From contig JAZSRX010000013.1 of the NCBI GenBank assembly GCA_045538685.1, positions 12,980 through 76,979 on the forward strand: a stretch of 64,000 nt of DNA, read 5' to 3'. A program made the translations under genes and the position numbers. Under the pieces are notes generated by a model. It did no database searches, was not told the DNA's origin, and worked only from the letters and a program-made list of their open reading frames with translations. The DNA is from Eubacteriales bacterium (lineage in GTDB: Bacteria; Bacillota; Clostridia; Oscillospirales; CAG-272). Positions 16,665-64,000 of the stretch are shown here, piece by piece (position 1 is the stretch's first letter; every line of letters starts with the position of its first letter).

Positions 16665-18695
16665 TTATCTCTTAACTCCAACAAGGTTGCCTGCGTAATT
16701 TGGTGCGGAGCCGTAGTCCTCGTCCGCCTCTATGTCGCTGCCGATGACCTTTCCTTCGTTGGAGCATCCCGTCATTTGCGCGGAGGGGAATATCTCACCG
16801 CAAATACCGCCGACAGAATTGGAGGTTGCAGTTACGTCACCGTGATTCTCACAGTCAATGTAGGTTACGTTTTGCCAGGAGCCGCCTACGATGCCGCCTA
16901 CAAGCTCTCTGCCTGTGATGTTTCCATAGTTCTTGCAGTTTTTGACGGTAACGTTCGGTGCTGCGATGTAGCCGATTATGCCGCCAACCTGGTTGTTACC
17001 TGCGGTAATATTTACGTAAGAGTTTATATTCTCAATTACCGCGCCGGTGAGAGCCATGCTTGTAAGAGAACCTACACGGCCCATTTCGATAGAAATATTC
17101 CCCTTGAGGGTAAGGTCGTGAACGTAACCGCCGATACCGCTGAATAGACCCTTTGCCCAGGTGTCGCCCGTGTAATTTCCGACGAAGGTGATGGTGTGAC
17201 CGTCACCGTCAAAGTTGCCGTTAAAGCTGTTTGCTTCGGCAACCCATCCGCTTTCATTAGAGGAGCAGATGGGAATCCAGCTTTCTGCGCTTAGATCTAT
17301 ATCTGCAGTGAGCTTGAAATATGTATTCTTGTCGGTAAAGCTCTTTCCCTTGGTATAGCGGGAAAGTGCCAGCATATCGTCTGCGTTCTGAATGAGATAA
17401 GGATTCTGTGCGGTTCCTTCGCCTTCAAACATAGTGGAAAGATCCATAACAATGGGAGGATACTTCGATTTGGTTATCTCGAAGGGATTTGCAATAGCAT
17501 TCGCATAGCTTTCCTTGCAAACGAGGATTTCCTCGGCAGTCATAGGGTAATTGAAGCCCGAGGCGGTGGGCGTCCATGTTATCTGTGACATATCTCTGCC
17601 GGTAAGAGTTCCGACAAGACCCATAGCTGCGATATAACGTCCTGCGCCGTATGAAAGATGGTTATGCTCGTCGCGGCTGAAGGTATCACCGATAATAGAG
17701 CTTCTTGCGTTCTGAACAGCAGTGCCGTTAGGAATGATGGCAACAAAATCCTTGTTCACGACATAGTTTTTCATACAGGAGACAATCGCGTTGTACATGG
17801 TCATCTGGTCAAAATTGTACTTCGAGAAATGAGCCGCCGTTGTGCCCTGCTGATATGCCCAGGTCTGATGCCATACAAACTTGACGTTGGGGTTGGCGTT
17901 AGGATTGTTTTCCTCATCCGTAGCAATATCATAAACGTAATTCATTAATTTTTGTAGATTGTTGAACGAACTCGGATCTCCGCTGGCGGAGCTGCCCTGC
18001 TGGAAGGTGATAAAGTCCCAATCGGTATACTTTATGGCCTGCTCCATGGTCCAGCCGGTGTAGGAGCTTCCGTCAAACCAGCCCTCCTTTTCAAGGCCGA
18101 AGCGATATGCGGGCTCGTTGTTCAGCGCGTTTTGCCAATGAGTGTTGATAACGCATCCGCCTATGTAAATGTCCGCAATAACAATGTTTTCCTCGGGGAT
18201 GCCTGCATTCTTGGCAATTTCATAGGCATAGTTGATCGCATCGTCGGCAAAAGAGTTGCCGATCATAAGAACCTTAAGCCTGTCGGCGGGGGTGACCGTA
18301 ACCTTGTACGATCCCGTCACCTCGGTGCCGTTTACCGCAACCGACACCTCGTATTCTCCGGTCTTCATGAAATTGAACTCCTCACACGTCACGGTGTAAT
18401 CCTCACTGCTGAGATTGACATTTGTACCGTCGGACATGGCGGCGGTCACCGAAATGTTTCCGGTGGAGAAGCTCTCGCCAAAGGCGAAGCTCGTTTTCGC
18501 ACCGCTGACCGAAATGCTGTTTATCGAGGCGGGGGTTTCGGGGTCGTTATCCGGCGGAGGATTTTCGCCTCCGGGGGGATCGCCGGCCGGTGGATTTTTA
18601 TCTCCGTTGCCGGAGTCGGGTGGGGTGATCAGGTTGCAGGCGCACAGGGCAGAGAGCACCGTCAGAATAAGTAGAAATGTCAACAGTTTTTTCAT
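16665..18695 (-). CDS. lipoprotein: Ig-like domain + DUF4886 (SGNH-like esterase) + GLUG-type beta-helix repeats
   Basis: Lipobox LCAC, Pro/Gly linker, IGNSF..D, WDFITFQQ.S, WHQTWAY, RD...H, then GEGT..NPYLI and NYG...VGGI.G repeats. Confidence 0.8.
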   Translation of the reverse strand: MKKLLTFLLILTVLSALCACNLITPPDSGNGDKNPPAGDPPGGENPPPDNDPETPASINSISVSGAKTSFAFGESFSTGNISVTAAMSDGTNVNLSSEDYTVTCEEFNFMKTGEYEVSVAVNGTEVTGSYKVTVTPADRLKVLMIGNSFADDAINYAYEIAKNAGIPEENIVIADIYIGGCVINTHWQNALNNEPAYRFGLEKEGWFDGSSYTGWTMEQAIKYTDWDFITFQQGSSASGDPSSFNNLQKLMNYVYDIATDEENNPNANPNVKFVWHQTWAYQQGTTAAHFSKYNFDQMTMYNAIVSCMKNYVVNKDFVAIIPNGTAVQNARSSIIGDTFSRDEHNHLSYGAGRYIAAMGLVGTLTGRDMSQITWTPTASGFNYPMTAEEILVCKESYANAIANPFEITKSKYPPIVMDLSTMFEGEGTAQNPYLIQNADDMLALSRYTKGKSFTDKNTYFKLTADIDLSAESWIPICSSNESGWVAEANSFNGNFDGDGHTITFVGNYTGDTWAKGLFSGIGGYVHDLTLKGNISIEMGRVGSLTSMALTGAVIENINSYVNITAGNNQVGGIIGYIAAPNVTVKNCKNYGNITGRELVGGIVGGSWQNVTYIDCENHGDVTATSNSVGGICGEIFPSAQMTGCSNEGKVIGSDIEADEDYGSAPNYAGNLVGVKR

Positions 18696-18773: not shown

Positions 18774-19619
18774 TTACTTGTTAAGAAGCTGCAGCTTGTC
18801 TCTTCGGTACTCCATAGGAGTTTTTCCTTTTATTTTCTTGAAGATCTTGGACATATACTTAACGTCCGAGTAGCCAAACTGCTGTGCTATGTGCGATATG
18901 GAATAGTTGGTTGTGATCAGCATCGACGCCACCTGGGATATCTTCTGATTTGCACAGTATGCCAGGGGAGTCTGATTGTATTCCTCTTTAAAGGTTCGCT
19001 CGATGTGAGATTTGCTGATATAAAGGTTATTGCTGATGTCGTCGAGGGTGATCTTCTCGTTGATATGAGCATCAATGTAATTCTTGATCATCTCGGGGAT
19101 GAAGTTGGTGTTTGTCTTGCTCTGGTAGGGCGGTGGAAAGAGCTGCTGGAAAATTTCCAGCACCCACACGGATAATCTGTCGTAATTAATGGGGCCCTCC
19201 CTGCTCAAATGATTGATGATCTGGGTCATAAGCCCGTCTAAATTACACTTTTTTACGTACACGCTGTTGCTTAACCGATAGCCCGATACAAGAAAATCCA
19301 CAAAACTTCCTTTAAGCACGAGGAAAATTTTCTCATAGGGTTCGTCGGGGTCAGAGTAATAGATGTGATAGCACAGCTTGTTGAGGAAGTAAAAATCCCC
19401 CGCCTCTACGGTATATTTCTCCTCGGGAGTCTCAATATAACCCTTGCCCTTTACCACGTATTCAAAGACGTAATAATCGTAGGGAAACTGGTTAGATACG
19501 TTGTGTATAATTCTATAGGTAGGATCTGGATGAGTAACACCTGCCATAATGACTTCAAGGTAGTCGTTGCTTATGGCGTTGTGGACGACTATTTCCTCTC
19601 CCCACTTGCTGATGTACAT
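18774..19619 (-). CDS. AraC/XylS family regulator
   Basis: N-terminal cupin (FEYVVKGKG), C-terminal double HTH (SKSHIERTFKEEYNQTP ... FGYSDVKYMSKIFKKIKGKTP.EYR); GGAGG SD. Confidence 0.93.
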   Translation of the reverse strand: MYISKWGEEIVVHNAISNDYLEVIMAGVTHPDPTYRIIHNVSNQFPYDYYVFEYVVKGKGYIETPEEKYTVEAGDFYFLNKLCYHIYYSDPDEPYEKIFLVLKGSFVDFLVSGYRLSNSVYVKKCNLDGLMTQIINHLSREGPINYDRLSVWVLEIFQQLFPPPYQSKTNTNFIPEMIKNYIDAHINEKITLDDISNNLYISKSHIERTFKEEYNQTPLAYCANQKISQVASMLITTNYSISHIAQQFGYSDVKYMSKIFKKIKGKTPMEYRRDKLQLLNK

Positions 19620-20051: not shown

Positions 20052-21194
20052 ATGAAAAAAATTATAGCAGCATTAACACTTGCAATTCTTGTATGCCTTA
20101 TGAGCTTTGGACTTGCATCCTGCAAGCCCTCCGAAACCCCCGACACGGGTAAGGGGCCTGGCACCACCGATCAGGGCGGTAAAGAGGAAAACAAGGATCC
20201 CGGGAGCGTAATCGCATCTCTCACCGCAACCGAAAGCTCTACCGAGATGAAGGTTGGCGACACTATCCTTCTCACCAACTTCTACAAGATCGAGGGTACC
20301 TCCTCACTCAGCAATGCTCAGAGAGCCTGCACCTACGAGTCCAGCAATCCCGAGATCGTTAAGATCAACGCAAAGAGAGCCGAGGCAGTTGCTCCCGGTA
20401 CCGCAACGATCACGATCACATCCAATGAGGACAATACCAAGAGCTGCTCCTTCGAGGTTACCGTTTCCAAGGTATTTATCGACAGAGAGCTTTCTGCGAT
20501 CCCCTCTGAGGATGACTTCACCAACGAGTGGGATTCCGAGTCCGGCACAGGCTCCTTCAGAACCAGCTCGGGTATCACAAACTTCTACTACATAGCCGAC
20601 ATCGAGTCCACACAGTGGTACGTTGAGACCGATATCACAGTTCACACTGCAAACTGGGATGACAGATGGCCCAAGATCGGTATCGTTGCATCCGGCAAGA
20701 ACTCCAGCGGTGTTGAGACCATGGTAGCCTTCTTCCTTAACGCATCTATCGGACTTAACGACTCCTGGAACGGCGCAGATCTTGTTAAGGGTCAGGATAA
20801 CCTTAACTGGAATGAGTTCGGTGTATGTGAGGTTGCACAGGGTCAGCACTGGGCATGGGAGCAGGGTATCACCAACTCTCTTGCAAGACATCACGACTAC
20901 GCTTGGAACACCGGCACAAACACTATTACCTTCGGAACCACCTTTAAGCTTGGTGTTGCACGCGATGGAATGAACTTCCACGTATACGTAAACGGCAATT
21001 ACATGGGCTCCTTCGCTCTCAGCTCCGAGCTTGACATTCTCTATGAGAATGGCCAGCCTATTGCAAGCCACGTTGGTTTCTATCAGTTCAGCAGCGACGT
21101 TACCTTTGCGAACTATTTCGCAACTCAGGATGCGGCTAAGGTTGCTGAGAAGATTCCCGAGGCACCCGTTTTCTGCGAATTTCTTGAAGACTGA
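20052..21194 (+). CDS. lipoprotein with Big_2 Ig-like domain and a ConA/LamG-like beta-sandwich
   Basis: Lipobox LASC; YESSNPEIV.I....AVAPGTATITITS (Big_2); KLGVARDG.NFHVYVNG strand pattern; Trp-rich. Confidence 0.65.
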   Translation: MKKIIAALTLAILVCLMSFGLASCKPSETPDTGKGPGTTDQGGKEENKDPGSVIASLTATESSTEMKVGDTILLTNFYKIEGTSSLSNAQRACTYESSNPEIVKINAKRAEAVAPGTATITITSNEDNTKSCSFEVTVSKVFIDRELSAIPSEDDFTNEWDSESGTGSFRTSSGITNFYYIADIESTQWYVETDITVHTANWDDRWPKIGIVASGKNSSGVETMVAFFLNASIGLNDSWNGADLVKGQDNLNWNEFGVCEVAQGQHWAWEQGITNSLARHHDYAWNTGTNTITFGTTFKLGVARDGMNFHVYVNGNYMGSFALSSELDILYENGQPIASHVGFYQFSSDVTFANYFATQDAAKVAEKIPEAPVFCEFLED

Positions 21195-21197
21195 TAA

Positions 21198-22421
21198 GTG
21201 AAGCTTTTCAAATCCCGTATTGATACTTTAAGAGAGTCCGCGCCAGCAAAAACGAGCAAACGCTTCATTGCCGGCGTGATCGATATAGTCCTGGTAGCTC
21301 TGCTCGCAGGCCTCATTTTTTCCGGTGCATTTCTCATCACCTCCCGAAGCGAGCGTTATGAGGAAGCCGAGGCGGCGGTCCGGGACGAGATCGACTATTA
21401 CGAAAGACTCACCGAGGATACTCACATCGTTGAGTACGTAAATGGCAGCAGAGCCACGTTGGACGTTGTGGTGCTGAAGAACGTATATCGGGCAATATGC
21501 CTGTCCTACGATGTCTTCGGCAACGTCCAGCAGAAGGATTTTGTAATCGATCCCTCTCATCCCGTGAGGGTTAACGGAGTTCACTCCGCAGAGAACGATA
21601 ACGTGGCTTATTTTTACACACGCTACCTCAGGGATAATCCCGATATGGGTATCGGTGCGGAGAGGGACGTTTTCGAGATATACAGAAGTGCCTTTGGCGA
21701 CGACGCCTCGTTTATGTTTTCCTTCGATCGGGAAAGATCGGAGATCCCCGTTCTGAACACCCAGGTGGCGTATTATATCTTCCACTATCTGTTCGTAGAC
21801 GAGAGTGACAGCATCGGGCAGACGGGCGCAACGTATTACAGATCCTATTACAACGCCTATTCGTATATGCTTGAGGAGGCGGAGCAGCTGATCATCGGAA
21901 GTGAGCCCTATAATTCCACTCATTACGTGAACTATAAGGCAGCCCTTACGGCACAGGCAAGATATACGAATATCGCACTGCTGATTTCGATTTTCATATC
22001 CTGCTTTGCCGTTCTTCTTGCTTCAAGATATATTTTCGGCGATGGAAGGACTCCGGGATATATGCTCCTCGGCCTCGGGGTGGTCGGAGTCGGTGGCGAG
22101 AGGATAGAGTGGTACAATCCGCTTATCAAAACTGCGGTATACGCTGTCGGTGCAATACCGATCACCTTCATTTTATATATGTTCCCCCCGTTTAACGGCA
22201 GTTACGAGTCTATGTTTATGCCCGTGACGGTTGACGGCGGGATCTCTCTGGGCCTTCTGGTCCTCATAATAACCCTGCTTTGGGGAATAGTAAACGCCTT
22301 TGGGCTCTTTACCCGAAAAAGGCAGAATTTGTTGAATCTGATCTTTAATGACCTTGTTGTGGACCCTCGCTATCCCGACGATGATGACGATGGCAGCACA
22401 AATCACGGAAGATCGTATTAA
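21198..22421 (+). CDS. RDD-family membrane protein with a large extracytoplasmic insert
   Basis: KRFIAGVID first TM, G.TPG..LLGL.V, C-terminal ..KRQ.L.NL; GTG start 3 nt after the upstream stop. Confidence 0.7.
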   Translation: MKLFKSRIDTLRESAPAKTSKRFIAGVIDIVLVALLAGLIFSGAFLITSRSERYEEAEAAVRDEIDYYERLTEDTHIVEYVNGSRATLDVVVLKNVYRAICLSYDVFGNVQQKDFVIDPSHPVRVNGVHSAENDNVAYFYTRYLRDNPDMGIGAERDVFEIYRSAFGDDASFMFSFDRERSEIPVLNTQVAYYIFHYLFVDESDSIGQTGATYYRSYYNAYSYMLEEAEQLIIGSEPYNSTHYVNYKAALTAQARYTNIALLISIFISCFAVLLASRYIFGDGRTPGYMLLGLGVVGVGGERIEWYNPLIKTAVYAVGAIPITFILYMFPPFNGSYESMFMPVTVDGGISLGLLVLIITLLWGIVNAFGLFTRKRQNLLNLIFNDLVVDPRYPDDDDDGSTNHGRSY

Positions 22422-22436: not shown

Positions 22437-24068
22437 ATGAAATTGTTTAACACAGGATTAACTAAGGCACTGAGCTTTTTGCTTATACTTTCAATGGTAA
22501 TCGGACTCGTCGGATGTAAGAAGAAGAAGGATAATAAACCCGATAATACAGTCGGCGGTGCCAACATAGAGAATATCACCGATGACCTTCCCAGAGACGA
22601 GAACGGAAAGTTCGTCGTTGATTATCTCGAGAACGTTCAGATCAATATGTGGAGCGTTATCGGTCAGCCCGACCAGGAGATCCTCCTCGACCTTGTTAAG
22701 GAGTTTAACAAGCAGTACGCGGGCATTATTGAGATCAAGGTAACCTCCGTAGGTCACTACGATTACTACAACGCCCTTGACTCTACTTATGCAAACGACT
22801 ATGAGAATTTCCCCGACGTCTGCTTTATGCATAACGAGAAAAATATTGAGTACGCCCTTAAAGGATATTTCTATCCCGTTGACGAGCTTTTAACAAAGGC
22901 AGGCGTCGATATTGATTTCGCCAACGCATACGATAATATAGAAAAAACCACCGTTCACGACGGTAAGCATTACGGTATTCCGATCGACGCACACGGATAC
23001 CTTACTCAGATCAGACAGGACATCATTAAGAAGAACAATCTTGGCTTTGACGGTAACACCCGCTTCGTTCCTCAGAACTACCAGGAATACCAGACACTCA
23101 TTGAGGGCCTCAGAGAGCTTGCCGATTCGGGTGAGCTTTGGATAAGAAACATCAACCTCGATCAGGATCACTCCTGGTATCAGCTTAAAACAGGCAATTC
23201 CAAGCTGTCGGAAAAGATCACCAAGGATAACTTCTATCCCGTATTCTTCCATTCTCAGGAGAGTGATAACCTCACAGCACTCTACGTAAACGGCGGAACT
23301 CTCGTTGATGAAAACGGTGACGTTTCCTTCCATAAGAACACCGGTCTTACCCAGTACGCTACCGACCTTGTAGAGCGCTTCAACGACAACCTTCTCGGTG
23401 ACGCAGGCAATAAGGAGGCTGCCTTCCCCACAGGACAGATCGTAATGTTCTCCGAGGGTCCTTGGATGGTTGCCAATACCTACGACCTCTGGTGGAACAA
23501 TAAGCAGCTCTCCACGGCAGGCAAGCTTGGCGTAACCGAGGAGGATGCGGCAGATCCCATATACAGCAATCCTTACATTGCCGCACGCCCCTATTATATG
23601 GCGGCAGAGGGCGCACCTGCAGAGAGCGCGTCAAAGTGGTACGGCAACGGCCACGTTATTACACTTACCAACAAGATCACCAGCATGCAGAAGGCTGCGG
23701 CTGCGCTTATTTTTGCGGAGTGGCTTACTCAGGGTCAGAAGGATGACGGCGGCTATAACCTTACCGATTGGTGTAAGGCAGGCCACGTTCCCGCATGGAA
23801 GAACGTATACAGCTCCGACGACTATAAGGCTGCGGAGGCCAAGAGCATAACCCTTTCCGCTATGGGTGATCCCTCAGACATCATCGCCCTTGAGAGTACA
23901 CAGTATGCCACAACTCTTATCGCAGGCCTTACCACCGCTATCGGTGACATAAGCGCACAGCTTCTCTCGGTAGATGGCTGTACCATTGATAAAGCAAAGA
24001 AAACGCTTGAGGATACCGCTGCGTCCACACAGGAGGCACTTAACCTTCTCAAGCTCGGAACTAAGTGA
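22437..24068 (+). CDS. carbohydrate ABC transporter solute-binding lipoprotein
   Basis: Lipobox LVGC; LV.EFN.Q, PDV, DGKHYGIP, F..G...M...GPW (CUT1 SBP pattern). Confidence 0.9.
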   Translation: MKLFNTGLTKALSFLLILSMVIGLVGCKKKKDNKPDNTVGGANIENITDDLPRDENGKFVVDYLENVQINMWSVIGQPDQEILLDLVKEFNKQYAGIIEIKVTSVGHYDYYNALDSTYANDYENFPDVCFMHNEKNIEYALKGYFYPVDELLTKAGVDIDFANAYDNIEKTTVHDGKHYGIPIDAHGYLTQIRQDIIKKNNLGFDGNTRFVPQNYQEYQTLIEGLRELADSGELWIRNINLDQDHSWYQLKTGNSKLSEKITKDNFYPVFFHSQESDNLTALYVNGGTLVDENGDVSFHKNTGLTQYATDLVERFNDNLLGDAGNKEAAFPTGQIVMFSEGPWMVANTYDLWWNNKQLSTAGKLGVTEEDAADPIYSNPYIAARPYYMAAEGAPAESASKWYGNGHVITLTNKITSMQKAAAALIFAEWLTQGQKDDGGYNLTDWCKAGHVPAWKNVYSSDDYKAAEAKSITLSAMGDPSDIIALESTQYATTLIAGLTTAIGDISAQLLSVDGCTIDKAKKTLEDTAASTQEALNLLKLGTK

Positions 24069-24090: not shown

Positions 24091-25158
24091 ATGGAAAAGA
24101 CAGTTGTTTTAGAAGAATACGCTAAACAAAGGTCTCGACGGATAGGTGCTTTTAAAAAATACGGAGTCACGGGCATATTCTTGCTGCCGTATCTTGCGGC
24201 GTTTATAGTGTTCTTCGTTTTACCGCTGTTTTACGGAATTTATATTTCACTGACGAACTTCCAGTATGGAAAGCCGGGCGTTGAGCATTTCAATGACTTC
24301 GAATGGTTCAGAATGCTTTTTGATTCGACCTTCATGCCCGGCATATACAAGAGCTTCTGGCTTGCGTTTGTCCACACCATCATGTTCTCGGTCATTATGG
24401 TTCCCATTGCAATAATCCTGCCCCTGTTCCTGGCAATTCTGATCAATCAGAAGCCTGCGGGCTATAAGCTTTTCAGAGCCCTCATCTATATGCCCTCTAT
24501 CGTTCCCCTCACCGCCGCAGGTACTATCTTCACCCTGCTGTTCATGTCAAAATCTCAGCACGGTGTTCTGGCGGAGTTTTTCGGAATAGATATTATGTGG
24601 TTTATCGATAATTGGTTCAGCTTCTCGCTCTTTGGACAGCAGATCGATATCGTTTATGCCTGGATCCCCATCTTCTTTATGTGCTTATGGGGCGGCTGGG
24701 GAGGTAACTTCATAATTTTGAGTGCGGGACTTCAGAACGTGCCTAAGCATCTTTACGAGGCGGCTGACATTGACGGCTGCTCGTCATTCAGAAAGATCTT
24801 GAACGTGACCATTCCCGGAATCAAGCCTCAGCTTGTTCTTTGTCTGTTCACCACGATTCTCGGTTATCTCGGTCTTTACGGTCAGAACTACGTGCTGTCA
24901 AGCGGCGGACCTTCAATTGCCGCCATAGCCAGCATGCCCGCAGGCGGTAAGACCTCAACGCTTATGTACTTTATTCAGGATATAGTAGCTAACAATCTGC
25001 AGTTCAAGTCCAGCCTTTACGGTCTCGGTGCTGCGGCGAGCTTAGTATTCGCCCTGTTTGCGGGTATTATCTCGGGTATCCAGATGTACATCACCCGTGA
25101 AAAGAAGACGGGTACAAAAATTTCGGAGGCGTATAACAAATGGCACGCAATCAAATAA
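24091..25158 (+). CDS. carbohydrate ABC permease (MalF/UgpA type)
   Basis: FLLPY, FRALIYMPS, EAA loop LYEAADIDG, multiple TMs. Confidence 0.93.
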   Translation: MEKTVVLEEYAKQRSRRIGAFKKYGVTGIFLLPYLAAFIVFFVLPLFYGIYISLTNFQYGKPGVEHFNDFEWFRMLFDSTFMPGIYKSFWLAFVHTIMFSVIMVPIAIILPLFLAILINQKPAGYKLFRALIYMPSIVPLTAAGTIFTLLFMSKSQHGVLAEFFGIDIMWFIDNWFSFSLFGQQIDIVYAWIPIFFMCLWGGWGGNFIILSAGLQNVPKHLYEAADIDGCSSFRKILNVTIPGIKPQLVLCLFTTILGYLGLYGQNYVLSSGGPSIAAIASMPAGGKTSTLMYFIQDIVANNLQFKSSLYGLGAAASLVFALFAGIISGIQMYITREKKTGTKISEAYNKWHAIK

Positions 25159-26090
25159 CACTGGAACAGTATATAGGCTTCCGTAAAAAGAGAAGCTTTG
25201 GAGAAAAGAAAAAGCCCAACGTGGGCAAGATCATCTCCTTCGCATTTTTGCTTCTGTTTTGTATAGTTTGGCTCTCTCCGTTCGTCATTATGTTCTTCGG
25301 CTCACTAAGAGGCTATTCGGACACTATGCTCTATCCCAAGGAGCTGTTCTATCCCCACTCGGGCTATACGCTTGAGAACTACGAGATGCTTCTTTTAGGT
25401 AAGCTTCCCGAGGGTATCGGTCAGGTAAACAGCGTACAGGATTACAAGATAGGCACGTGGTTTATGAACAGCTGCTTCAGCGCTATTGGCGGCACGCTGC
25501 TGTATCTGCTCGTCGCCTCGCTTGCGGCATATGCCTTTACCTTCATTGACTTTAAATACAGAAACCTTCTCTTCGGAGCTATCGTTGCATCAATGATCAT
25601 TCCCGGCGCGGCGACCGCGGTAGGTAACCAATCTATGGTTTACTCCATGGGCTTAAACAGATCGCTCCTTGCTCTGATCATCCCGGGACTTGGCGGAGTG
25701 TACGGAATGTACCTTATAAAAACCTTCTTTGAGTCTATACCGAAGGATCTTATCGAGTCGGCGAAGATGGACGGCTACAGCAATTTCAAGATCTTCTATA
25801 AGATCGTTCTTCCTCTTGGAAAGACCGTTCTCTTCGTACAGGGACTCTTCGGATTTATGGGAGGCTGGAACGACCTTATCTGGCCTCAGATGCTCTACGG
25901 AGCGAAGGATAACGATCTGTGGACTCTTCAGGTCGGTATGGCTTATATCATCAATAATTCCAAGACCAGCAATCTGATAGGCTCGGCTCTGGCGGGCGGT
26001 GTGATATGCCTTCTTCCCGTGCTGGTAATGTATATCATTGCCCAGGATAAGATTATAGAGGGTATGTCCAGCAGCGGAATTAAAGGATAA
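25140..26090 (+). CDS. carbohydrate ABC permease (MalG/UgpE type)
   Basis: NS...A, AAYAF, IPKDLIESAKMDG, WNDLIWP, TLQVG, GIKG end. Confidence 0.93.
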   Translation: MARNQITLEQYIGFRKKRSFGEKKKPNVGKIISFAFLLLFCIVWLSPFVIMFFGSLRGYSDTMLYPKELFYPHSGYTLENYEMLLLGKLPEGIGQVNSVQDYKIGTWFMNSCFSAIGGTLLYLLVASLAAYAFTFIDFKYRNLLFGAIVASMIIPGAATAVGNQSMVYSMGLNRSLLALIIPGLGGVYGMYLIKTFFESIPKDLIESAKMDGYSNFKIFYKIVLPLGKTVLFVQGLFGFMGGWNDLIWPQMLYGAKDNDLWTLQVGMAYIINNSKTSNLIGSALAGGVICLLPVLVMYIIAQDKIIEGMSSSGIKG

Positions 26091-41534: not shown

Positions 41535-41558
41535 ATTATTAATAAATGAGGTGAAGTG

Positions 41559-48441: not shown

Positions 48442-48525
48442 TGATATAGATTTTTCCCATAGTAAAATGTATTTGCAGTAAAATTCATTTCATTATGAGA
48501 AAAACACAACAAAAGGGGAAAGACT

Positions 48526-50262: not shown

Positions 50263-50271
50263 ATAAAGCGT

Positions 50272-51948: not shown

Positions 51949-51963
51949 AAACGGAGGTCGGAT

Positions 51964-52980: not shown

Positions 52981-52996
52981 AATATAGGAGTAGAAT

Positions 52997-55765: not shown

Positions 55766-55794
55766 ATTTAAAATTAAAGGAGTTTAGCACACGG

Positions 55795-56694
55795 CTAAAC
55801 TCCTTTTCTGTTTCTGTATGAAATTGGTGAGATGCCGTATGTCCTTTCGAAGGTCTTCGTCATATGTGATGTGTCATAGAAGCCTGTTTTTTCGGCGATC
55901 TCCGTTATGGAAAGATTAGTGTTTATCAGCATGCTTGCAGCCGATTCTATTCTGATCTTGCTAATATATGCCGAGGGAGGCATTTTGCATATTTCTTTAA
56001 ATTTCTTAATGTAAGAGGATCTTGAAATATGAGCAATTCGTGTCAGATCCTCTATAGTGATTTTTTCATAATACCTTTCGTGAATGAAGGATATTGATTC
56101 CATAAGAGCACGGTCCTCGCTAAGCGTTGGATTCTCATGGGCAGAGCTGGTGCTGTATGCTTTGCACAGAAGGCTGATGGTCACCATTGCGAGATTGCTT
56201 CTTATTAAGGATTCCGCAGGGTCGCTGCATTTGTCGTTTTTGGCAATGGCCTTCATTGCCTCGACCGTGGTGAGAAGCTCGTCACCCTTCAACTTCAGAT
56301 GCAGAGGAACGGTAGTTTTACCTCTCATCATCGGTTCGGCACCGAAAAGCTTGTAAAAGGCGGAGAGAAATTGCATATCCGCAATATATTTACTCATAAA
56401 TCCATCGCTTAATATAACGTGAAAAACGTCGAAGCCCTTGCCGCCTATATAGCCGTGGCTGATCCTGGGAGGAATGATGAAAACGTCGCCCGCCGAGGTC
56501 TTGACCACATTATCGTCTATATAGTGTGTTCCCTCTCCACGGGTTATTAAATTAATCTCAAAAAACTCCTGCTCGTGCATTCCGATGCTGTAGTCCGACA
56601 TAAGGAAGGCGTGTACAAGGTCTAGGGAATGAATAAAAAAATCCGAGTGAGTGTAATAATAATGCTCGTGCCTTATTAGCTTTTGCAATTCCAT
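55795..56694 (-). CDS. AraC family regulator with cupin sensor
   Basis: MHEQEFFEI..I..G.G.H cupin; SRSSYIKKFKEICKMPP ... GFYDTSHMTKTF...YGISP..YR; GGAGG SD. Confidence 0.93.
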   Translation of the reverse strand: MELQKLIRHEHYYYTHSDFFIHSLDLVHAFLMSDYSIGMHEQEFFEINLITRGEGTHYIDDNVVKTSAGDVFIIPPRISHGYIGGKGFDVFHVILSDGFMSKYIADMQFLSAFYKLFGAEPMMRGKTTVPLHLKLKGDELLTTVEAMKAIAKNDKCSDPAESLIRSNLAMVTISLLCKAYSTSSAHENPTLSEDRALMESISFIHERYYEKITIEDLTRIAHISRSSYIKKFKEICKMPPSAYISKIRIESAASMLINTNLSITEIAEKTGFYDTSHMTKTFERTYGISPISYRNRKGV

Positions 56695-56808
56695 AAGCGA
56701 CCTCCGTGATTAGTAAAAATAAACAAAATAAGCTGTTAGTTTGTGTACATTATTGGTGTTATGCATAAAAAATAAACGAATTTACAACACAAGATGTATT
56801 TTTATACA

Positions 56809-56837
56809 TTGATTATATCATAAACATTTTTTATAAT
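56809..56837 (+). promoter_or_regulatory. putative SigA promoter of the GH95 unit
   Basis: TTGATT-17 bp-TATAAT in the divergent AraC/GH95 spacer. Confidence 0.6.
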
Positions 56838-56875
56838 CAAGATGTAAAATAAAAATAAATGAGGAGATTTTTGAT

Positions 56876-59800
56876 ATGAAAAAGGCAAGGCGCGTTATTT
56901 CCTTAATGCTATGCATAAGCCTGCTGTTTTCCATGGTCGCTTGCAGACGGCCGGATAAGGGAGACGGACCTGACACACCACCGGATTCCGGAAACAGTAA
57001 CGCAGGAGGAGATTTGAGTATGAGTGAGTTGACCGCTATGAAGGTTAATTCGGAAAAAATACCCATGAAGCTTTGGTATGACGAGGAGGCGCCCTTCATT
57101 AATGAATGCTCTCCGAAGGCTACGATGATGGCAGGGCAGGACATCGGTTGGCAGAACTGGTCCCTGCCTCTTGGAAACGGATTTTTCGGTGCGAACGTTT
57201 TCGGCCGTGTTGAGACCGAGCGAGTTCAGATCTCCGAGAAAACTCTTGCTAACCCCTGGCAGCAGGTTAAGGTGACAAACGGAGTTACCTCCTGGCCCGA
57301 GGTCGCAGGACTCAATAATTTCTCCGAGACCTACATTGACTTTGATCACAATAAGGAAGACGTGACCAACTATGAGCGTGCCCTTGACATTGGTACGTCG
57401 GTTGCGACGACTAGCTATGATTATGATGGCGCTCACTACACGAGAGAGTATTTCGTCTCCTATCCCGACAAGGCGTTGGTTATACGTCTTGATGCGGTGG
57501 ACGGACCCCTCTCCTTCACCCTTCGTCCCACCATTCCCTTTGAGCAGAAGTATATGAACGAGCCCGGGGACGGTCTTGGCAAATCGGGAAATGTAAAGTC
57601 CCTTGTAGCAGGCGGCGTAGGATATATTGAGCTTTGCGGAAAGCTTGAGTATTATGACGTTGATTTTGCCGGCTATTATCGTGTTTATACAACCGGTGGC
57701 ACAGTCAGTGCTGAAACTGTGAAAAATGCCAACGGCGAGACCGACGGTACTATAAGAGTTGAGGGAGCATCCTCAGCGATAATAGTTGCCAGCTTCGCTA
57801 CAGACTATGAGCTTGGCGTCGGCAATTTTGAGAACGGACAGTATAGCCATGACAAGCCTACAGCCTGGACCGACCTTGACGATGCACGTATAAAGGTTGA
57901 GAACGTCTTTGAGGAGATAGATATTGCAACCTCCGGCATGGCTGTTGACGAAATCTATAAATATCTTAAAGAAAGGCACGTTGCCGATTATCTGGAGCTT
58001 TACGGCAGGGTAAACCTTGAGCTTGATTGCGACGAGGAGGACTATAAGCTTACCACCGACAAGCTTCTTGAAAAATACAACAGCGGCAGTCACAGCTCCT
58101 ATCTTGAGGCATTGCTCTTCCAATACGGAAGATACCTTATTATTGCATCCTCGCGAGACGGCTCGCTCCCCGCAAACCTTCAGGGTGTATGGAATTGCTA
58201 TAACATTCCTGCCTGGACCAGCGGATATTGGAGCAACATCAACATTCAGATGAACTATTGGCACGTTTTCAGCACTAACCTTGCCGAAACGTTTATTCCT
58301 TACGTTGATTATAACAGCGCATATTTGCCCCTTGCTGAAAAGAATGCCAGCAATCTTATTGCTACACACAATCCTGCGACGTTTAATAAGGACGGTGGCA
58401 ACGGCTGGACAATGGGTGTTTCGGGCAACCCCTTCTTCATCAGCAGCGACCGCTCCTGCGGTAACCTTGGTCTTTTGACTCAGCTCTTCTATGACTATTA
58501 TGAGTTCACAAGAGACGAGGAGGTTTTGAGGACGGTTTATCAGGTGCTTGCAAATGCAGCACGCTTTGTTACCAAATGTGTAAAGGATTATGACGGGGTG
58601 TATCTCGTTGAATATTGCGACTCCCCCGAGATGTATGTTGACGGCGTATGGTATTACACGACGGGTACGACCTACGCACAGACACTGGCATACATAAATA
58701 ATTACGGTGCACTTCAGTGCGCAAAAGCATTGGGAATAGATCTTAATGACAGCAATCTACTCTCTACCGAGGATTACTCGATCCTGGCCACCATAATGGA
58801 GCAGCTTGATAAGTACGATCCTATTAACGTAGGTCTTTCCGGACAGATAAAGGAGTTCCGTGAGGAGGACTATTACGGCTCCCTCGGTAACCCCAATCAC
58901 AGACATATCTCTCAGCTTGTGGGCCTCTATCCCGGTAATATCATCAATTCGGGAACGGATGCATGGATGGATGCGGCACTTGTGAGTCTTGCGGGAAGAA
59001 ACGACGGTCTTACCGATTGGCCCAACGGAACCACGGCTACAAACGAGGCCAGCATCGTTGCATGGGCGTGGGCTCATAAGCAGGCTATGTATGCCAGAGC
59101 AGGAGAGGGAGATCTTGCGCAGGAGATGCTGAAGGGCAACCTCCGTAACTCCACCCTTGAAAACCTGCTTATGGTATGTGGAAAGATATTCCAGATTGAA
59201 GCGAGCAGCGGAACTACGGCTGCTATAGCTGAGATGCTCCTCCAGAGCGATGAGGAGTTTATTGAAATTCTCCCCGCCATTCCCACCAACTGGGACAAGG
59301 GAAGCTATACCGGACTTGTTGCGAGAGGCAATTTTGAGGTCAGCGTCTCTTGGGAAAACGGCGTAGCAAACAAGATCAATATCCTTTCTGCCAAGGGCGG
59401 AAGGGTAGCTGTTAAATATCCTAATTTCTCGGACGTGAAGGTTTATGACTCTGAGGGTAAGGCGGTTAATGCTACTCTCTCAGAGGATAGAATTCTCACC
59501 TTTGACACAACGGCAGGCAGCAGCTATTACATCAGCGGATTCAAGAAGGTCGTAAGACCTGAAAGACCTGATACCCTTAATTTCGATAGAGTTGGCTACG
59601 GTGATTTTAAGCTGAGCTTTAACGGTGTAGAGGGCGCAGAAAAATATAACGTTTACGTTGCATATGAAAACGATGCATCCTACTCCTTCGTGGGAAGCAC
59701 CACCGATACCTCCTTTGTTATCAAGGTAAAGGCAGGTGAGGAAAACGTAAGAAAGACCTTTGCCGTAACGGCGGTTAATTCCGATGGAGAGGAGAGCAAG

Positions 59801-61591
59801 AGGGCGCTTTGCTATTCGAACCCCGAGTCTCTTGGTATTGAGCTTTATTCACTTTCCTGGAACAGCGCTGATGGAAGGATCACAGTAACGGCTAACGCTA
59901 ACGAAAACGCTGCGGCAGTTCGCCTTTATGCCAAGGATTCCGAGGCAGGCGAGTATAAGCAGGTTGCGGCGGCAGATGGAATTACGGTCACCGCGGATTA
60001 CGATGAATCTAAGCTCTACGCACTTTCGGTAGTTGCAAAATTCACAGGCAAGGAAACCGCAAAGATGCCGCTTACTGTGGGTAATCACGAGAGCAATATC
60101 CTGACGAATAAGGAATTTGTTCCTCAGGGCAATGCGGCAGACGCTATTCTCGGAGATGACTACGGATATCCCGCGCTTACTGACGGCAGTGAGTTTAGCA
60201 GCAGCGAGGGAAGATTTGCCACTTCTGTCAAGGGCAGCTGCCTTGCGGGCACCGTTGACCTCGGCGGAGTATATAGTCTGGATGAGATGAGACTTTACGT
60301 ATACAAGGATGCTTCATATGCGGGTCAGGGCCTCACGGTGGAGATCCTCAACGGCGGCGAATGGAAGACCGTAATTGATCTTCAGACTAACGAGGCGATT
60401 GCAGGTCACCTTTACGGAGGCAACGTTCCTTATATTGCCCTTGATATGCAGGGCAACGTAGGAAACAAGCTTCGTATTACCATTGAGGGCGGTGTAAGCG
60501 GAAAGAGCATTTCCTTCCACGAGATCACTCTGACGGGTAAATACCGCGGTGAGACCGAGGGATATGAAAATATCTTCTCCGGCAAGGAGTTTACACCTAC
60601 AGCCGAGACTGCAGGAAACATATATAACTCATCATACGGATACGGTACTCTCACGGACGGTATTATCTTTGAGGAGTCCAGAGGCAGATTTTCAAGCAAG
60701 CAGAATGGAGGAAAGGTTGCTGCGACCATCGATCTTGGCGGAGTATACAGTCTTTCCAATATGAAGATATACCTTTACAAGGACGGTATAAGCAAGCTGG
60801 GAACGGGCATTACCGTCGAGCTGCTCTACAATGGAGAATGGACCACGGCTGCGAGCTGTTCCACCACTGACGAGATCTCAAGGTATTTGGTTGACAATCC
60901 CGGCGGTGTGGGAGACTTCCTTATATTCAATCTTGACGATGCGTATGCAAGCAAGGTCAGATTTGTAATTCCTGCACAGACGGACAGCGGTTGGACCACA
61001 CTTTACGAAATTGAGTGCCTTGGCATCAAGACTACCTTGATCGATAGCGCACCCGATAATGAGCCTGATGAAGACGAGGATAAGAACATCCTCTCGGGCA
61101 AGATCTTTGTTCCTACCGATGAGGCAAGGGCGGAGGTGCTCGTTGCTTCCTGGTTCGCAGGCGGAGGATATGAGGCGCTTACCGACGGTACAAGATTTGA
61201 GGATCAGGTGGGCAGGTTCTCTACAAAGATGAACAATACCACCGTCTTTATGGATGCAACGGTCGATCTCGGCGGTGTCTATACTCTTGACAGCATAAGA
61301 TTTTATATTTACGACGCACAGAAGAGCACAGAGCAGTCTAAGAAGGCAAGCATTGGTAAGGATATGCTGATTCAGGTATATTCCAACGGTCAGTGGAGTG
61401 ACGTTATCGTCTGCCCTGATAATGCGAGTCTCTCTGAGCATCTGGTAATTATTGACGGCCTTAATAACGATTATCTGGAGCTTTCCCTTCAGGGAGTCAG
61501 GGCAGAAAAACTGAGATTTTACATTTCGGGCGCTGCTTCGGCTGACGGTATTACCTTCCAGGAGATTGAGTGCTACGGTGAAAAAAGTTGA
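56876..61591 (+). CDS. GH95-family lipoprotein (alpha-L-fucosidase/L-galactosidase-like) + FnIII + three F5/8-like domains
   Basis: LWY, LPLGNG..GA, Y.R.LD, REYFVSYPD, FQYGRYL.I.SSR, ANLQG.W, NINIQMNYW, SPE, HRH.S.L.GLYP, AEMLLQS, GL.ARG; NI..GK.F.PT...LTDG...GRFS repeats. Confidence 0.92.
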   Translation: MKKARRVISLMLCISLLFSMVACRRPDKGDGPDTPPDSGNSNAGGDLSMSELTAMKVNSEKIPMKLWYDEEAPFINECSPKATMMAGQDIGWQNWSLPLGNGFFGANVFGRVETERVQISEKTLANPWQQVKVTNGVTSWPEVAGLNNFSETYIDFDHNKEDVTNYERALDIGTSVATTSYDYDGAHYTREYFVSYPDKALVIRLDAVDGPLSFTLRPTIPFEQKYMNEPGDGLGKSGNVKSLVAGGVGYIELCGKLEYYDVDFAGYYRVYTTGGTVSAETVKNANGETDGTIRVEGASSAIIVASFATDYELGVGNFENGQYSHDKPTAWTDLDDARIKVENVFEEIDIATSGMAVDEIYKYLKERHVADYLELYGRVNLELDCDEEDYKLTTDKLLEKYNSGSHSSYLEALLFQYGRYLIIASSRDGSLPANLQGVWNCYNIPAWTSGYWSNINIQMNYWHVFSTNLAETFIPYVDYNSAYLPLAEKNASNLIATHNPATFNKDGGNGWTMGVSGNPFFISSDRSCGNLGLLTQLFYDYYEFTRDEEVLRTVYQVLANAARFVTKCVKDYDGVYLVEYCDSPEMYVDGVWYYTTGTTYAQTLAYINNYGALQCAKALGIDLNDSNLLSTEDYSILATIMEQLDKYDPINVGLSGQIKEFREEDYYGSLGNPNHRHISQLVGLYPGNIINSGTDAWMDAALVSLAGRNDGLTDWPNGTTATNEASIVAWAWAHKQAMYARAGEGDLAQEMLKGNLRNSTLENLLMVCGKIFQIEASSGTTAAIAEMLLQSDEEFIEILPAIPTNWDKGSYTGLVARGNFEVSVSWENGVANKINILSAKGGRVAVKYPNFSDVKVYDSEGKAVNATLSEDRILTFDTTAGSSYYISGFKKVVRPERPDTLNFDRVGYGDFKLSFNGVEGAEKYNVYVAYENDASYSFVGSTTDTSFVIKVKAGEENVRKTFAVTAVNSDGEESKRALCYSNPESLGIELYSLSWNSADGRITVTANANENAAAVRLYAKDSEAGEYKQVAAADGITVTADYDESKLYALSVVAKFTGKETAKMPLTVGNHESNILTNKEFVPQGNAADAILGDDYGYPALTDGSEFSSSEGRFATSVKGSCLAGTVDLGGVYSLDEMRLYVYKDASYAGQGLTVEILNGGEWKTVIDLQTNEAIAGHLYGGNVPYIALDMQGNVGNKLRITIEGGVSGKSISFHEITLTGKYRGETEGYENIFSGKEFTPTAETAGNIYNSSYGYGTLTDGIIFEESRGRFSSKQNGGKVAATIDLGGVYSLSNMKIYLYKDGISKLGTGITVELLYNGEWTTAASCSTTDEISRYLVDNPGGVGDFLIFNLDDAYASKVRFVIPAQTDSGWTTLYEIECLGIKTTLIDSAPDNEPDEDEDKNILSGKIFVPTDEARAEVLVASWFAGGGYEALTDGTRFEDQVGRFSTKMNNTTVFMDATVDLGGVYTLDSIRFYIYDAQKSTEQSKKASIGKDMLIQVYSNGQWSDVIVCPDNASLSEHLVIIDGLNNDYLELSLQGVRAEKLRFYISGAASADGITFQEIECYGEKS

Positions 61592-61631: not shown

Positions 61632-64000
61632 ATGAAAACAAGAAGTATTTTTCTTATAGCAGCAGTATTGCTTGCGGCGGTATTGGCGTTTACCTCTTGT
61701 GATTTGATATCACAGTATCTACCCGGTGATAAGCATGAGCACACCTGGCAGGACGCTACATGTACCTCACCCCGAACCTGTACGAGCTGTAATGCGACCG
61801 AGGGAGATCCTCTCGGCCATACCGAGGAGGTCGTAGCAGGTAAGGAGGCCAGCTGTTCTGAAAAGGGACTCACCGAGGGCAAAAAATGCTCTCTTTGCGG
61901 TGAGATTCTTGTAGCACAGCAGGAAACTCCTATCAAGGATCATACCGAGGAGACGGTTCCCGGAAGCGATGCAAGCTGTACGGAAACAGGACTTACCGAA
62001 GGTAAAAGATGTGCCGACTGCGGTATTACCTTGGTTGAACAGCAGGAAATTCCTCTCAAGGATCATACCGAGGAGATCATTCCCGGTAAGGATGCAACCT
62101 GTACCGATAACGGTCTGACCGAGGGCAAGAAATGCTCGGTCTGCGGTGAGACTCTTGTGCCCCGTGAGGAGATTCCTCCCGTCGCGCACACAGAAGAGGT
62201 CGTACCCGGCAGAGCTCCCACCTGTACCGAAACCGGACTTACCGATGGTAAGAAGTGTTCTGTTTGCGGCACAACTCTTCTCGCTCAAGAGGAGCTTCCC
62301 ATTGAGCATAAGGAAGAGACTGTTGCGGGTAAGGATCCCACCTGTACCGAAACCGGACTTACCGATGGTAAAAAGTGTTCTCTTTGCGGCGCCATTCTCC
62401 TGAAGCAGGAGGAGATATCCTCCCTTGGACACAAGGATGAAAACGGCGACTACGAGTGTGACGTGTGTCACGCAGAGCTTTGCACAAACCATATTCCCGC
62501 AGAGCCCATTGTTGAAAATAAGAAGGACTCCAGCTGTAGCGAGACAGGCTCCTATGACAGCGTAATCAAGTGCTCCGTCTGCGGTGACGAGCTTGAGAGA
62601 GAGACCAAGACTATAGAAAAGCTTCCTCACACCGAGGAGGAAATTGCAGGTAAGGATGCAACCTGTACCGAAACAGGCCTTACCGCAGGTAAGAAGTGCT
62701 CTGTTTGTGGCGAGATCCTCGAGGCACAGCAGGAGATAGGCAAGCTTCCTCACACCGAGGAGGAAATTGCAGGCAAGGATGCAACCTGTACCGAAACAGG
62801 TCTTACCGCAGGTAAGAAGTGCTCTGTTTGCGGAGAGATCCTTGAGGCACAGCAGGAAATAAGCAAGCTTCCTCACACCGAGCAGACTCTGAGTGCAAAG
62901 GATCCCTCCTGCGTTGCAACCGGACTTACCGAGGGCAAGAAGTGCTCTGTTTGCGGTGAGATCCTTACAGAGCAGGAAACCATTCCCGCCGAAGGACATA
63001 AGTGGAACGGCGGAGAAACCCTTCTTGACGTTACAACCTACGAGTGTGAGGTTTGCGGTGTACAGAAGGTAGAAAGCGCAAAGCTTGAAAATGAAGATAA
63101 CATATTCTCGGGCAAGGAATTTGTGCCCACACCCGAGGCGGATGCTGTGGTTCTGAAGGCAAGCTGGTTCGCAGGCGGCGGATACGAGGTTCTTACCGAT
63201 GGCACCAGGGATCAGGAGCAGGTCGGTAGATTCTCCACTCTGATGAACAACACCACCTCCTTTATGGAGGCAACCCTTGATCTTCAGGAAAAGTACGTTC
63301 TCGGCAAGGTAAGATTCTACATCTACGATACCAAGGACAACCTCACAGAGGATTATAAGAAGGCAAGCGTTGGCTCTGACATCCTTATTCAGGTTTATCT
63401 TGGTGACAAGTGGTATGACGTGGTAGTCTGCGCAAACAACGAAGAGCTTTGCGGCAACCTCGTAATCAACGAAGGCGTAAATAACGATTATATCGAGTTT
63501 GACCTCACCGGTATTGTTGCCGAGAAGGTAAGATTCCTTATCGACTCTGCGGCAAGCAAGGACGGTATTACCTATCAGGAGATCGAGTGTGGTGGCGCGC
63601 TTCTTAATGAGCACGTTCACACCGAAACTATTCTTCCCGCAGAGGAAGCAACCTGCCTTCAGGCAGGAAAGACAGAGGGTGTTGTTTGTAACGTTTGTAA
63701 CACTACTCTGAAGGAGCAGCAGGTAATCGATGCTCTTGGTCACAGTTGGGGCGAGCCGATCGTTGCTGACGGTAAAACCGTAACCTCCTGTACCGTATGC
63801 GGTCTTACGAAGCTTGAGTCCGCAGATCTTGAAAGCGTAGATAATCTGTTCGCAGGCAAGAGATTCAATCCCACCGATGCAGCACTTGCAAGCGCTCTTT
63901 CCGCTTCTTGGTGGAAGGGTAGCGGATACCCCGGACTTACCGACGGTATAAAGAATGCAGATAATGCTCCCGGTAGATTTGCCACTAAGATGGCTCTTGA
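61632..64000 (+). CDS. large surface lipoprotein (3'-truncated by the window): His/Cys repeats + F5/8-like domains; N-terminal paralog of 33896-38731
   Basis: AAGGAG SD; MKTRSIFLIAAVLLAAVLAFTSC-DLISQYLPG..HEH.W..ATCTSP. The same frame is in use at the window end (...RFATKMAL). Absent from the ORF track, consistent with no stop in the window. Confidence 0.9.
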   Translation, partial: MKTRSIFLIAAVLLAAVLAFTSCDLISQYLPGDKHEHTWQDATCTSPRTCTSCNATEGDPLGHTEEVVAGKEASCSEKGLTEGKKCSLCGEILVAQQETPIKDHTEETVPGSDASCTETGLTEGKRCADCGITLVEQQEIPLKDHTEEIIPGKDATCTDNGLTEGKKCSVCGETLVPREEIPPVAHTEEVVPGRAPTCTETGLTDGKKCSVCGTTLLAQEELPIEHKEETVAGKDPTCTETGLTDGKKCSLCGAILLKQEEISSLGHKDENGDYECDVCHAELCTNHIPAEPIVENKKDSSCSETGSYDSVIKCSVCGDELERETKTIEKLPHTEEEIAGKDATCTETGLTAGKKCSVCGEILEAQQEIGKLPHTEEEIAGKDATCTETGLTAGKKCSVCGEILEAQQEISKLPHTEQTLSAKDPSCVATGLTEGKKCSVCGEILTEQETIPAEGHKWNGGETLLDVTTYECEVCGVQKVESAKLENEDNIFSGKEFVPTPEADAVVLKASWFAGGGYEVLTDGTRDQEQVGRFSTLMNNTTSFMEATLDLQEKYVLGKVRFYIYDTKDNLTEDYKKASVGSDILIQVYLGDKWYDVVVCANNEELCGNLVINEGVNNDYIEFDLTGIVAEKVRFLIDSAASKDGITYQEIECGGALLNEHVHTETILPAEEATCLQAGKTEGVVCNVCNTTLKEQQVIDALGHSWGEPIVADGKTVTSCTVCGLTKLESADLESVDNLFAGKRFNPTDAALASALSASWWKGSGYPGLTDGIKNADNAPGRFATKMAL
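62619..62990 (+). repeat. 123-bp intragenic tandem repeats (His/Cys unit)
   Basis: AAGCTTCCTCACACCGAG recurs at 62619, 62742 and 62865. Confidence 0.9.

Follow-up and report, generated by a model that had tools for sequence, protein, structure and literature searches.

We describe here a glycan-utilization island in the genome of a gut bacterium of the class Clostridia. The window, by which we mean the whole 64,000-nucleotide stretch of DNA that was analyzed, corresponds to positions 12980-76979 of contig C49 of genome G000, a 1.88-Mb metagenome-assembled genome (MAG) that is 79.7% complete. The island is about 48 kb long and spans the window from position 16665 to its end, with the last gene finishing at 64859. 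It had been proposed, from the sequence of the window alone, that this is a system for eating other microbes' surface polymers in which phosphodiesterases act as the depolymerases and the products are imported and finished inside the cell. The island is real and conserved, and its arrangement is more than chance. The objective is to clarify what it feeds on and what the phosphoesterases contribute.

Gene content of the island

Pfam was run on the 22 open reading frames (ORFs) from 16665 on. It finds DUF4886, two AraC regulators, two CUT1 permeases, the ABC ATPase, two members of glycoside hydrolase family 43 (GH43; other families are abbreviated likewise), two SASA, GH3, GDPD, two Metallophos, GH2, GH95 and PHP, the last at 26.2 bits, just under the 26.4 cut-off, with an NCBIfam match to the CehA/McbA domain at 1.6e-17. 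Adding NCBIfam, a profile for the solute-binding protein (SBP), and a lipobox scan, which is positive for 12 of the 22 proteins, recovers the full inventory of enzymes, importer, two AraC sensors and 12 lipoproteins given in the original prediction. The same 22 ORFs include no GH5, 9, 10, 11, 13, 26 or 28 and no lyase family, as had also been stated, and no mannosidase family has a match in the island. Judged by these matches, predicted glycan enzymes, a carbohydrate transporter and a regulator are co-located, which is the content of a Gram-positive polysaccharide utilization locus (gpPUL).

Seventeen genes between 20052 and 55765 lie on a single strand with gaps of no more than 160 nt; all coordinates below are on the plus strand unless marked otherwise. 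The run opens with a 380-amino acid lipoprotein (20052..21194) with Big_2 and beta-sandwich domains, a predicted surface glycan-binding protein, followed by an RDD-like membrane protein found by Pfam (21198..22421), which is absent from two of the other loci examined, G209:C102 and L132. The importer comes next, made of a sugar-type SBP lipoprotein (22437..24068), two CUT1 permeases (24091..25158 and 25140..26090) and a MalK/UgpC-type ATPase (26104..28113), the last three recognized by both Pfam and NCBIfam. The ATPase is 669 residues long with two long insertions, and its orthologues vary from 545 to 793 residues. After it is encoded GH43a, a surface protein predicted by Pfam and profile to be a furanosidase (28126..29781); its paralogue GH43b, also at the surface, is 61% identical and lies further down the run (50272..51948). 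Three enzymes carry no signal-like N-terminus and are taken to be cytoplasmic, namely the GH3 (31580..33853), the GH2 (48526..50262), which is assigned to group III (GH2_18/19) and is a predicted beta-D-galactofuranosidase, and a PHP-fold metallohydrolase (51964..52980). The 380-residue lipoprotein, the SBP, GH43a and the GH2 are core genes in the sense developed below.

Three predicted esterases are encoded. SASA esterase 1 (29790..31574) has GQSG replacing GQSN, and SASA esterase 2 (41556..44303) has GQSN and DxxH; both are at the surface. The third is a lipoprotein on the minus strand (16665..18695) joining Big_3, an SGNH-like DUF4886 domain with GNS and DxxH motifs, and a GLUG-like repeat domain. 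Domains of this GLUG-like kind were considered as tailspike-like depolymerases; they have one weak PDB match (3N6Z, E = 0.001) and weak Pfam Glug matches, and they recur on the secreted phosphoesterases. Of these, one is a lipoprotein with a GLUG-like domain and a C-terminal GDPD domain (38799..41534) bearing HRG, ExD, LHD and EIK motifs, and another is the lipoprotein we call metallophosphoesterase 1 (MPP1; 44322..48365), which combines LamG, a calcineurin-like phosphoesterase and a GLUG-like domain. The third, MPP2 (52997..55765), is a phosphoesterase with a GLUG-like domain that is predicted to be secreted and is not a lipoprotein, having a hydrophobic N-terminus without a lipobox. A 1611-residue lipoprotein (33896..38731) with Cys/His repeats, MucBP and two GLUG-like domains matched no catalytic family.

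AraC regulator 1 (18774..19619, minus strand) is divergent from the main gene run and has orthologues at 68-80% identity in the closest loci, and AraC regulator 2 (55795..56694, minus strand) is divergent from a GH95 module. An orthologue of the second regulator (52%) in L024:18986-21635 faces a glycyl-radical (PFL-like) gene and not a GH95. The GH95 is a surface protein with F5/8-type (CBM32-like) domains (56876..61591), CBM denoting a carbohydrate-binding module. It has a Trp (WTSGYWSN) at the place of the His in the 2EAB motif WGSDFHMN, and FQID reads FQIE. A His or Thr at this pocket position marks fucosidases and L-galactosidases, and the Trp possibly predicts a new specificity; the five carriers searched for fucose isomerase have none. 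The twelfth lipoprotein follows (61632..64000 in the window, ending at 64859); it has Cys/His repeats and three domains resembling the C-terminal ones of the GH95, with no catalytic domain. A minus-strand ORF at 61767-63743 was rejected as a gene, being a shadow of this lipoprotein gene. Left of the island, between 3277 and 13339 of the window, there are type IV pilin-like ORFs together with genes for a prepilin peptidase and for PilC-like and PilB-like proteins, and beyond them a protein with GAP1-N2/GAP1-M domains.

In one gut study, contigs from four RNA libraries cover 38500-58400, filling 30, 28, 19 and 21 of 30 bins. Being assembled contigs with no silent-region control, they lie over the island's right half and hint at its expression without proving it.

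Distribution and the conserved core

Scanning species genomes with GH43a yielded 34 loci, most of whose records are MAGs of Clostridia and Bacilli from the ruminant gut. Nine further gut Clostridia MAGs keep a near-identical gene order and, with the window's own genome, form a close set of ten (G000, G181, G201-G208) in which both halves of the island can be read, three of them on two contigs; protein identities are 59-95%. A close GH43a orthologue (over 40% identity) is found in none of three same-genus genomes and in one of 200 genomes of the host family (G181), and the flanks of the island differ among its other carriers. Of the 152 10-kb segments in the genome, the four covering the island have the highest GC content (0.478-0.497 versus 0.425), and the SASA, MPP, GH95, DUF4886 and PHP catalytic domains have no paralogue elsewhere in it (E 1e-4). 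The island has likely spread horizontally, and a tRNA-Leu(CAG) gene at its left edge (15318..15401) is a possible insertion site.

Within the close set, GH95, MPP2, GH43b and AraC regulator 2 come and go; MPP2 is in 2/10 loci, and GH95 was seen in 4/10, some contigs stopping early. MPP1 and PHP are each in all ten. GDPD is in eight, as a separate gene in three (G000, G202, G203) and fused to the MPP1 C-terminus in five (G201, G204, G206, G207, G208), and it is absent from the loci of G181 and G205, the latter a 1.1-Mb MAG in which a genome-wide search did not find it. MPP1 is duplicated in G204, and in G201 PHP stays with galT where both have relocated upstream of the island. The synteny check suggested alongside the original prediction thus does show phosphoesterase and glycosidase genes conserved together, in the close lineage only. 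Because the close loci share one ancestor, the counts show retention and not independent gains. The MPP1 catalytic domains of G181:C39 and G202:C175 are nearly identical (branch length 0.003) while the surrounding DNA is about 73-85% identical, a pattern for which recent recombination between islands is a possible source.

Distant loci retain the SBP, permeases, ATPase, GH43, GH2 and an SGNH-type esterase, and the phosphoesterases are not among the retained genes. The G209:C102 locus has an SBP that is 75% identical to that of the window, along with a beta-sandwich lipoprotein, ABC genes, two GH43, a GH2 and DUF4886 proteins. In a more distant type (L047, L048, G213, L135, L137, L139) SBP identity falls to 25-28% and the order is large beta-sandwich lipoproteins, GH43, SBP, permeases, ATPase, GDSL esterase, GH36 and GH2. 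Five distant loci were read out to unrelated genes on either side (G209:C102, G213, L135, L137, which resembles L047, and L139). In 5/5 of them BLAST matches no ORF to the island MPP, GDPD or PHP domains, and Pfam on their main unassigned ORFs, a scan that passed over some small ones, finds no phosphoesterase. The MPP family profile has no match anywhere in G211-G213, and its matches in G209 and G210 are solely to genes outside the locus. Every locus that could be read through at both ends encodes an SGNH-type esterase, be it SASA, DUF4886 or GDSL. A CotH-kinase-like lipoprotein was noticed inside phosphoesterase-free Anaeroplasmataceae versions of the locus (L163:2244-3992, L167:2-1222).

The conserved core, in terms of predicted functions, is then a CBM-like lipoprotein, GH43, the ABC importer, an SGNH esterase and a cytoplasmic GH2. 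Because the fully read distant loci do without phosphodiesterases, this predicted machine does not need them. The idea that they serve as the depolymerases is not supported, given their absence from loci with the same core, and both MPP and PHP are also common outside glycan loci, as described below.

Predicted enzyme functions and sugar use

The strongest clue to the substrate is one that the original prediction overlooked, a link to galactofuranose (Galf) and galactose. The GH2 has four best PDB matches, 7XYR (5e-92), 7SF2 (7e-77) and 9J6N/9J6M (about 1e-60), the last two being structures of the Streptomyces galactofuranosidase, with the next only at 3e-23. 7XYR, a GH2_19 member, and 9J6M belong to GH2 group III, and beta-D-galactofuranosidase and alpha-L-arabinofuranosidase activities are described as specific to that group (PMC12243196). 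The window GH2 has the group III traits, being closest to group III structures and having the NE motif and a Thr replacing the stacking Trp. In ORF1110, a Streptomyces beta-D-galactofuranosidase, the active-site residues are given as K212, Y228, R399, H401, N463, E464, Y512, E530, Y551, T586 and E594, of which K212, Y228 and E594 hold O6, the position that tells Galf from arabinofuranose (Araf) (PMC11627007). Alignment mapping finds all 11 in the window GH2. They are complete as well in 14 of 17 orthologues, with identities as low as 37%, and the remaining three rows, truncated at the C-terminus, agree wherever they have sequence. The residues binding O5/O6 of Galf (K212, Y228, Y551, E594) are all conserved in the window protein, which is the basis for predicting that it is a beta-D-galactofuranosidase (EC 3.2.1.146).

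The GH43 profile has its best PDB matches to 4QQS (3e-47), 3KST (6e-36) and 3QZ4 (8e-26), at about 30% identity. We take 4QQS to be GH43_33 and 3KST to be GH43_31. From this level of matching, GH43a and GH43b are predicted furanosidases. 3QZ4 is assigned to GH43_34 (bioRxiv 10.1101/2021.10.27.466152), and a review table lists galactofuranosidases in GH43_30, 31, 32 and 34 (PMC12290620). A GH43_31 is reported to assist digestion of bacterial galactofuranan, and GH172, an alpha-D-arabinofuranosidase family, is reported to cut microbial D-arabinan (PMC10115798). A 61%-identical relative of GH43a adjoins a GH172 gene in G214 (L030/L031, 154-21588), in a locus present twice, on two contigs, that also holds a PfkB-SIS fusion, a CBM_X2 protein, two further GH43 and two sugar ABC systems, and that looks like a Bacilli locus for a D-arabinan/D-galactofuranan-type glycan. 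D-Arabinan use by the window's genome was considered and dropped, the GH172 domain DUF2961 not being found in G000.

The SBP has no Pfam match; a 13-sequence profile matches sugar SBPs in the PDB (3.5e-10), at a level that assigns no ligand class. The model of the 380-residue lipoprotein is a beta-sandwich with a predicted local distance difference test (pLDDT) score of 85.6. Its top fold match is CBM66 with Z = 14.7 and a root-mean-square deviation (rmsd) of 2.9 over 156 aligned residues, tied with 3mep at Z = 14.0. CBM66 binds terminal fructofuranose, and the modeled CBM66-like fold by itself shows no ligand.

Genes of the Leloir pathway indicate where the released sugar could go. In six of the ten close genomes (G201, G203, G204, G206, G207, G208), galK, galT or galE is within two genes of PHP, and galT-galK come after GH2 in distant G213. 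Among carriers, galK is found in 5/5, fucose isomerase in 0/5 and the arabinose isomerase AraA in 0/10. Galf is described from bacteria, fungi and protozoa and not from mammals, and to our knowledge it is absent from plant wall polysaccharides. Given the GH2 residues, the GH43 neighbors, the Leloir linkage and the lack of AraA, the food is likely to be D-galactose out of Galf, a sugar of microbial glycans, which supports the eating of other microbes' polymers. Self-remodeling was rejected as the island's role, the UDP-galactopyranose mutase gene glf being in just 2/5 carriers and no general partner. Elsewhere in the genome, catabolic and Galf-synthesis genes are oddly mixed at G000:C37:13347-23970, where GH3 and GH2 genes precede one resembling a sugar transporter, then glf, a gene resembling a glycosyltransferase, and galT.

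The phosphoesterases are harder to assign. MPP1 has no PDB match by sequence and weak profile matches (best E = 0.017), and its model has a calcineurin-like fold with pLDDT 83.4. The nearest folds are tied between GpdQ (Z = 21.2, rmsd 2.8, 227 aligned), 2nxf (21.1) and Lmo2642 (20.8), with identity at or below about 16%, and purple acid phosphatases are only 2 Z units lower. With GpdQ, Rv0805 and Lmo2642 it shares the fold (Z 19.5-21.2) and the GD, GD and GNH motifs, and it differs from them in having DxQ not DxH, GHxP/S not GHxH, a predicted secreted location, and a joined LamG. DxH and GHxH are the usual metallophosphoesterase motifs, and GDxxY supplies the tyrosine ligand of purple acid phosphatases. 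That tyrosine is absent from MPP1, where all variants of the motif read GDIT followed by E, D or N, and, of the usual seven metal ligands, two His are replaced in all 31 aligned rows of the family. Because the tyrosine and both histidines are missing, MPP1 cannot be called a mono- or a diesterase from its sequence. GDPD (PF03009) scores 113.8 bits against a cut-off of 23.6 with its catalytic motifs present, and its best NCBIfam match is a UgpQ-type model, below cut-off. A literature search on the CehA/McbA and YvnB names returned nothing on function.

In the host family, MPP (24/200) and PHP (74/200) turn up in far more genomes than does the GH43 orthologue of the island. The LamG-MPP module is often without a glycosidase neighbor, G003 alone having 11 copies beside varied loci that include GH2/GH42, BNR, GH43 or GDSL genes, and of the 27 PHP loci with scanned flanks, most lie beside housekeeping genes. 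In a quick tree, island MPP1s are one branch within the family-wide LamG-MPP set (SH-aLRT support 100), and MPP2 is on a separate branch. In G003 (L110-L115), at five of the six loci read, the gene directly after the LamG-MPP encodes a large secreted protein of the GLUG-like type, several of these having dockerin-like ends; the MPPs of the window carry their GLUG-like domain by fusion. The simplest reading is that one lineage of an older locus recruited generic phosphoesterases. Their usefulness there is suggested by their retention, by the fusions of MPP1 with GDPD and by the link of PHP to galT, and since MPP1 and PHP are kept in 10/10 and GDPD is fused to MPP1 in five, that lineage may target a phosphorylated variant of the glycan.

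Proposed mechanism and relation to known systems

We favor, at somewhat better than even, a horizontally spread Gram-positive island whose food is Galf-rich, O-acylated surface glycans of microbes and which, in one lineage, gained phosphoesterases as helpers that de-block the substrate. Gene content, order, conservation, conserved residues and two domain folds are the established part, and we infer all the catalytic steps. The glycan would be bound by the surface beta-sandwich lipoproteins, and the SASA and DUF4886 esterases would strip O-acyl groups; in the Clostridia lineage MPP1 and GDPD would also strip phosphodiester or polyol-phosphate groups that stall exo-glycosidases. The surface GH43s would then release short Galf-containing oligosaccharides for import by the ABC system, and cytoplasmic GH2, GH3 and PHP would finish them, sending D-galactose into the Leloir pathway. 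Of the original prediction, what stands is a dedicated import-and-finish system, probably for a microbial and not a plant glycan, with O-acyl esterases and furanosidases.

Several points weigh against this reading. The nearest GH43 structure, 4QQS, is about 30% identical and is presumably an alpha-L-arabinofuranosidase, and a GH43 relative in L039 is near GH127 and GH53, pointing to plant arabinogalactan. GH2_19 also contains an alpha-L-arabinofuranosidase and two beta-galactosidases, and to place the equivalent of Y551 the HMMER alignment had to be shifted by two residues to fit the motif. At the window's own island in G000, and at the loci of G202, L135, L137 and L139, there is no adjoining Leloir gene. 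AraA is uncommon in the family (44/200 genomes with any match, 14 strong) and the carriers are incomplete MAGs. Finally, the ten close loci are not independent, since all of them go back to a single block.

A different role for the phosphoesterases, confined to the Clostridia lineage, would be that Galf repeat units are joined by polyol-phosphate diesters, with MPP1 and GDPD cutting the backbone and whole units being imported. The retention of MPP1 and PHP where GH95, MPP2, GH43b and AraC regulator 2 vary argues for it, as do the frequent and often fused GDPD and the tied fold matches of MPP1. Such polymers exist, the pneumococcal 35B capsule having phosphodiester-linked repeats and acetylated Galf (PMC12371886), and Galf, O-acetyl groups and phosphodiesters are joined in polymers of Gram-positive bacteria (PMC12371886, PMC12413058). 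However, importer, GH43 and GH2 occur without phosphoesterases in the five fully read loci, one of them with the 75%-identical SBP, two close loci lack GDPD, and MPP1 is remote from any solved phosphodiesterase and nearly as close to purple acid phosphatases. We consider this explanation doubtful. Its fuller form would have the Clostridia island cut polyol-phosphate-linked, O-acetylated Galf polymers at the phosphodiesters, by a LamG-MPP/GDPD pair grafted onto an older galactofuranan locus, making its carrier a grazer on capsules or wall polysaccharides, and that too seems to us unlikely.

A plant substrate is less probable still. The glycosidases would trim arabinogalactan, arabinogalactan-protein or pectic side chains (alpha-L-Araf, beta-D-galactopyranose, alpha-L-Fuc/Gal caps) and the cell would use the galactose, which is consistent with the herbivore gut in relatives' records, the common action of GH43, GH95 and GH3 on plant substrates, the mixed activities in GH2_19, the L039 context, and a Leloir linkage that fits galactopyranose equally. 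It has to contend with the lack of AraA in all ten carriers, the lack of galactanase, GH51 and GH127 families among the island ORFs, and the O6-binding galactofuranosidase residues retained in GH2, and it leaves the phosphoesterases unexplained. About as improbable, finally, is the view that the phosphoesterases are unrelated passengers of a strongly expressed operon for surface enzymes, where they would scavenge phosphate or lipid head groups (glycerophosphodiesters, nucleotides). This would suit the wide occurrence of LamG-MPP and PHP in the family and the UgpQ-type match, but not the retention, duplication and fusion of MPP1 or the movement of PHP with galT.

The gpPULs of gut Firmicutes hold glycosidases, an ABC importer and a regulator in one locus, and those familiar to us target plant or host glycans; the island differs in being predicted for microbial Galf glycans and in having three phosphoesterase folds. 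Galf-eating loci are already known in gut Bacteroides, where B. finegoldii PUL39/PUL47 and B. cellulosilyticus PUL35/36 act on D-galactofuranan, and there too a microbial Galf polymer is the food and a GH43_31 galactofuranosidase takes part (Al-Jourani et al. 2023, PMC10115798). Compared by description, those loci are SusC/D-type with GH43_31 and GH182 (PMC10115798), whereas the island is from Bacillota and relies on lipoproteins and an ABC importer, together with a GH2 of group III, phosphoesterases and SGNH esterases. ORF1110 of Streptomyces sp. JHA19 (GH2_18) is of the same three-domain GH2 type and shares the 11 active-site residues, but it is described as secreted with a CBM42-like domain (PMC11627007), and the island GH2 is predicted to be cytoplasmic and scores higher against 7XYR. 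A precedent for de-blocking is found in the yeast mannan PULs of B. thetaiotaomicron, where the glycan of a microbial wall is handled by glycosidases along with the phosphatases BT2630/BT3783 (Cuskin et al. 2015, PMC4978465). They differ in target, in being from Bacteroidetes, and in phosphatase fold, which was overlaid with tyrosyl-DNA phosphodiesterase (PMC4978465), and the island has no mannosidase match. Our literature search, with most subscription papers outside its reach, found no description of a Bacillota equivalent of a Galf-eating locus and no published teichoic-acid or Galf utilization locus with a phosphodiesterase.

The locus offers several candidate enzymes for study, among them the surface GH43s at about 30% identity to solved structures, the cytoplasmic group III GH2, secreted metallophosphoesterases of an uncharacterized family whose metal ligands are altered, the GH95 with its atypical pocket residue, and the CBM-like lipoprotein. 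Galf-specific and phosphodiester-cutting enzymes would be tools for the analysis of bacterial and fungal polysaccharides, and the locus types with and without phosphoesterases make a natural experiment on what the phosphoesterases contribute. If the Galf reading is true, gut Bacillota with small genomes use a mobile locus to recycle the surface glycans of other microbes, and would occupy a niche that, in the literature found, has so far been shown for Bacteroidetes.

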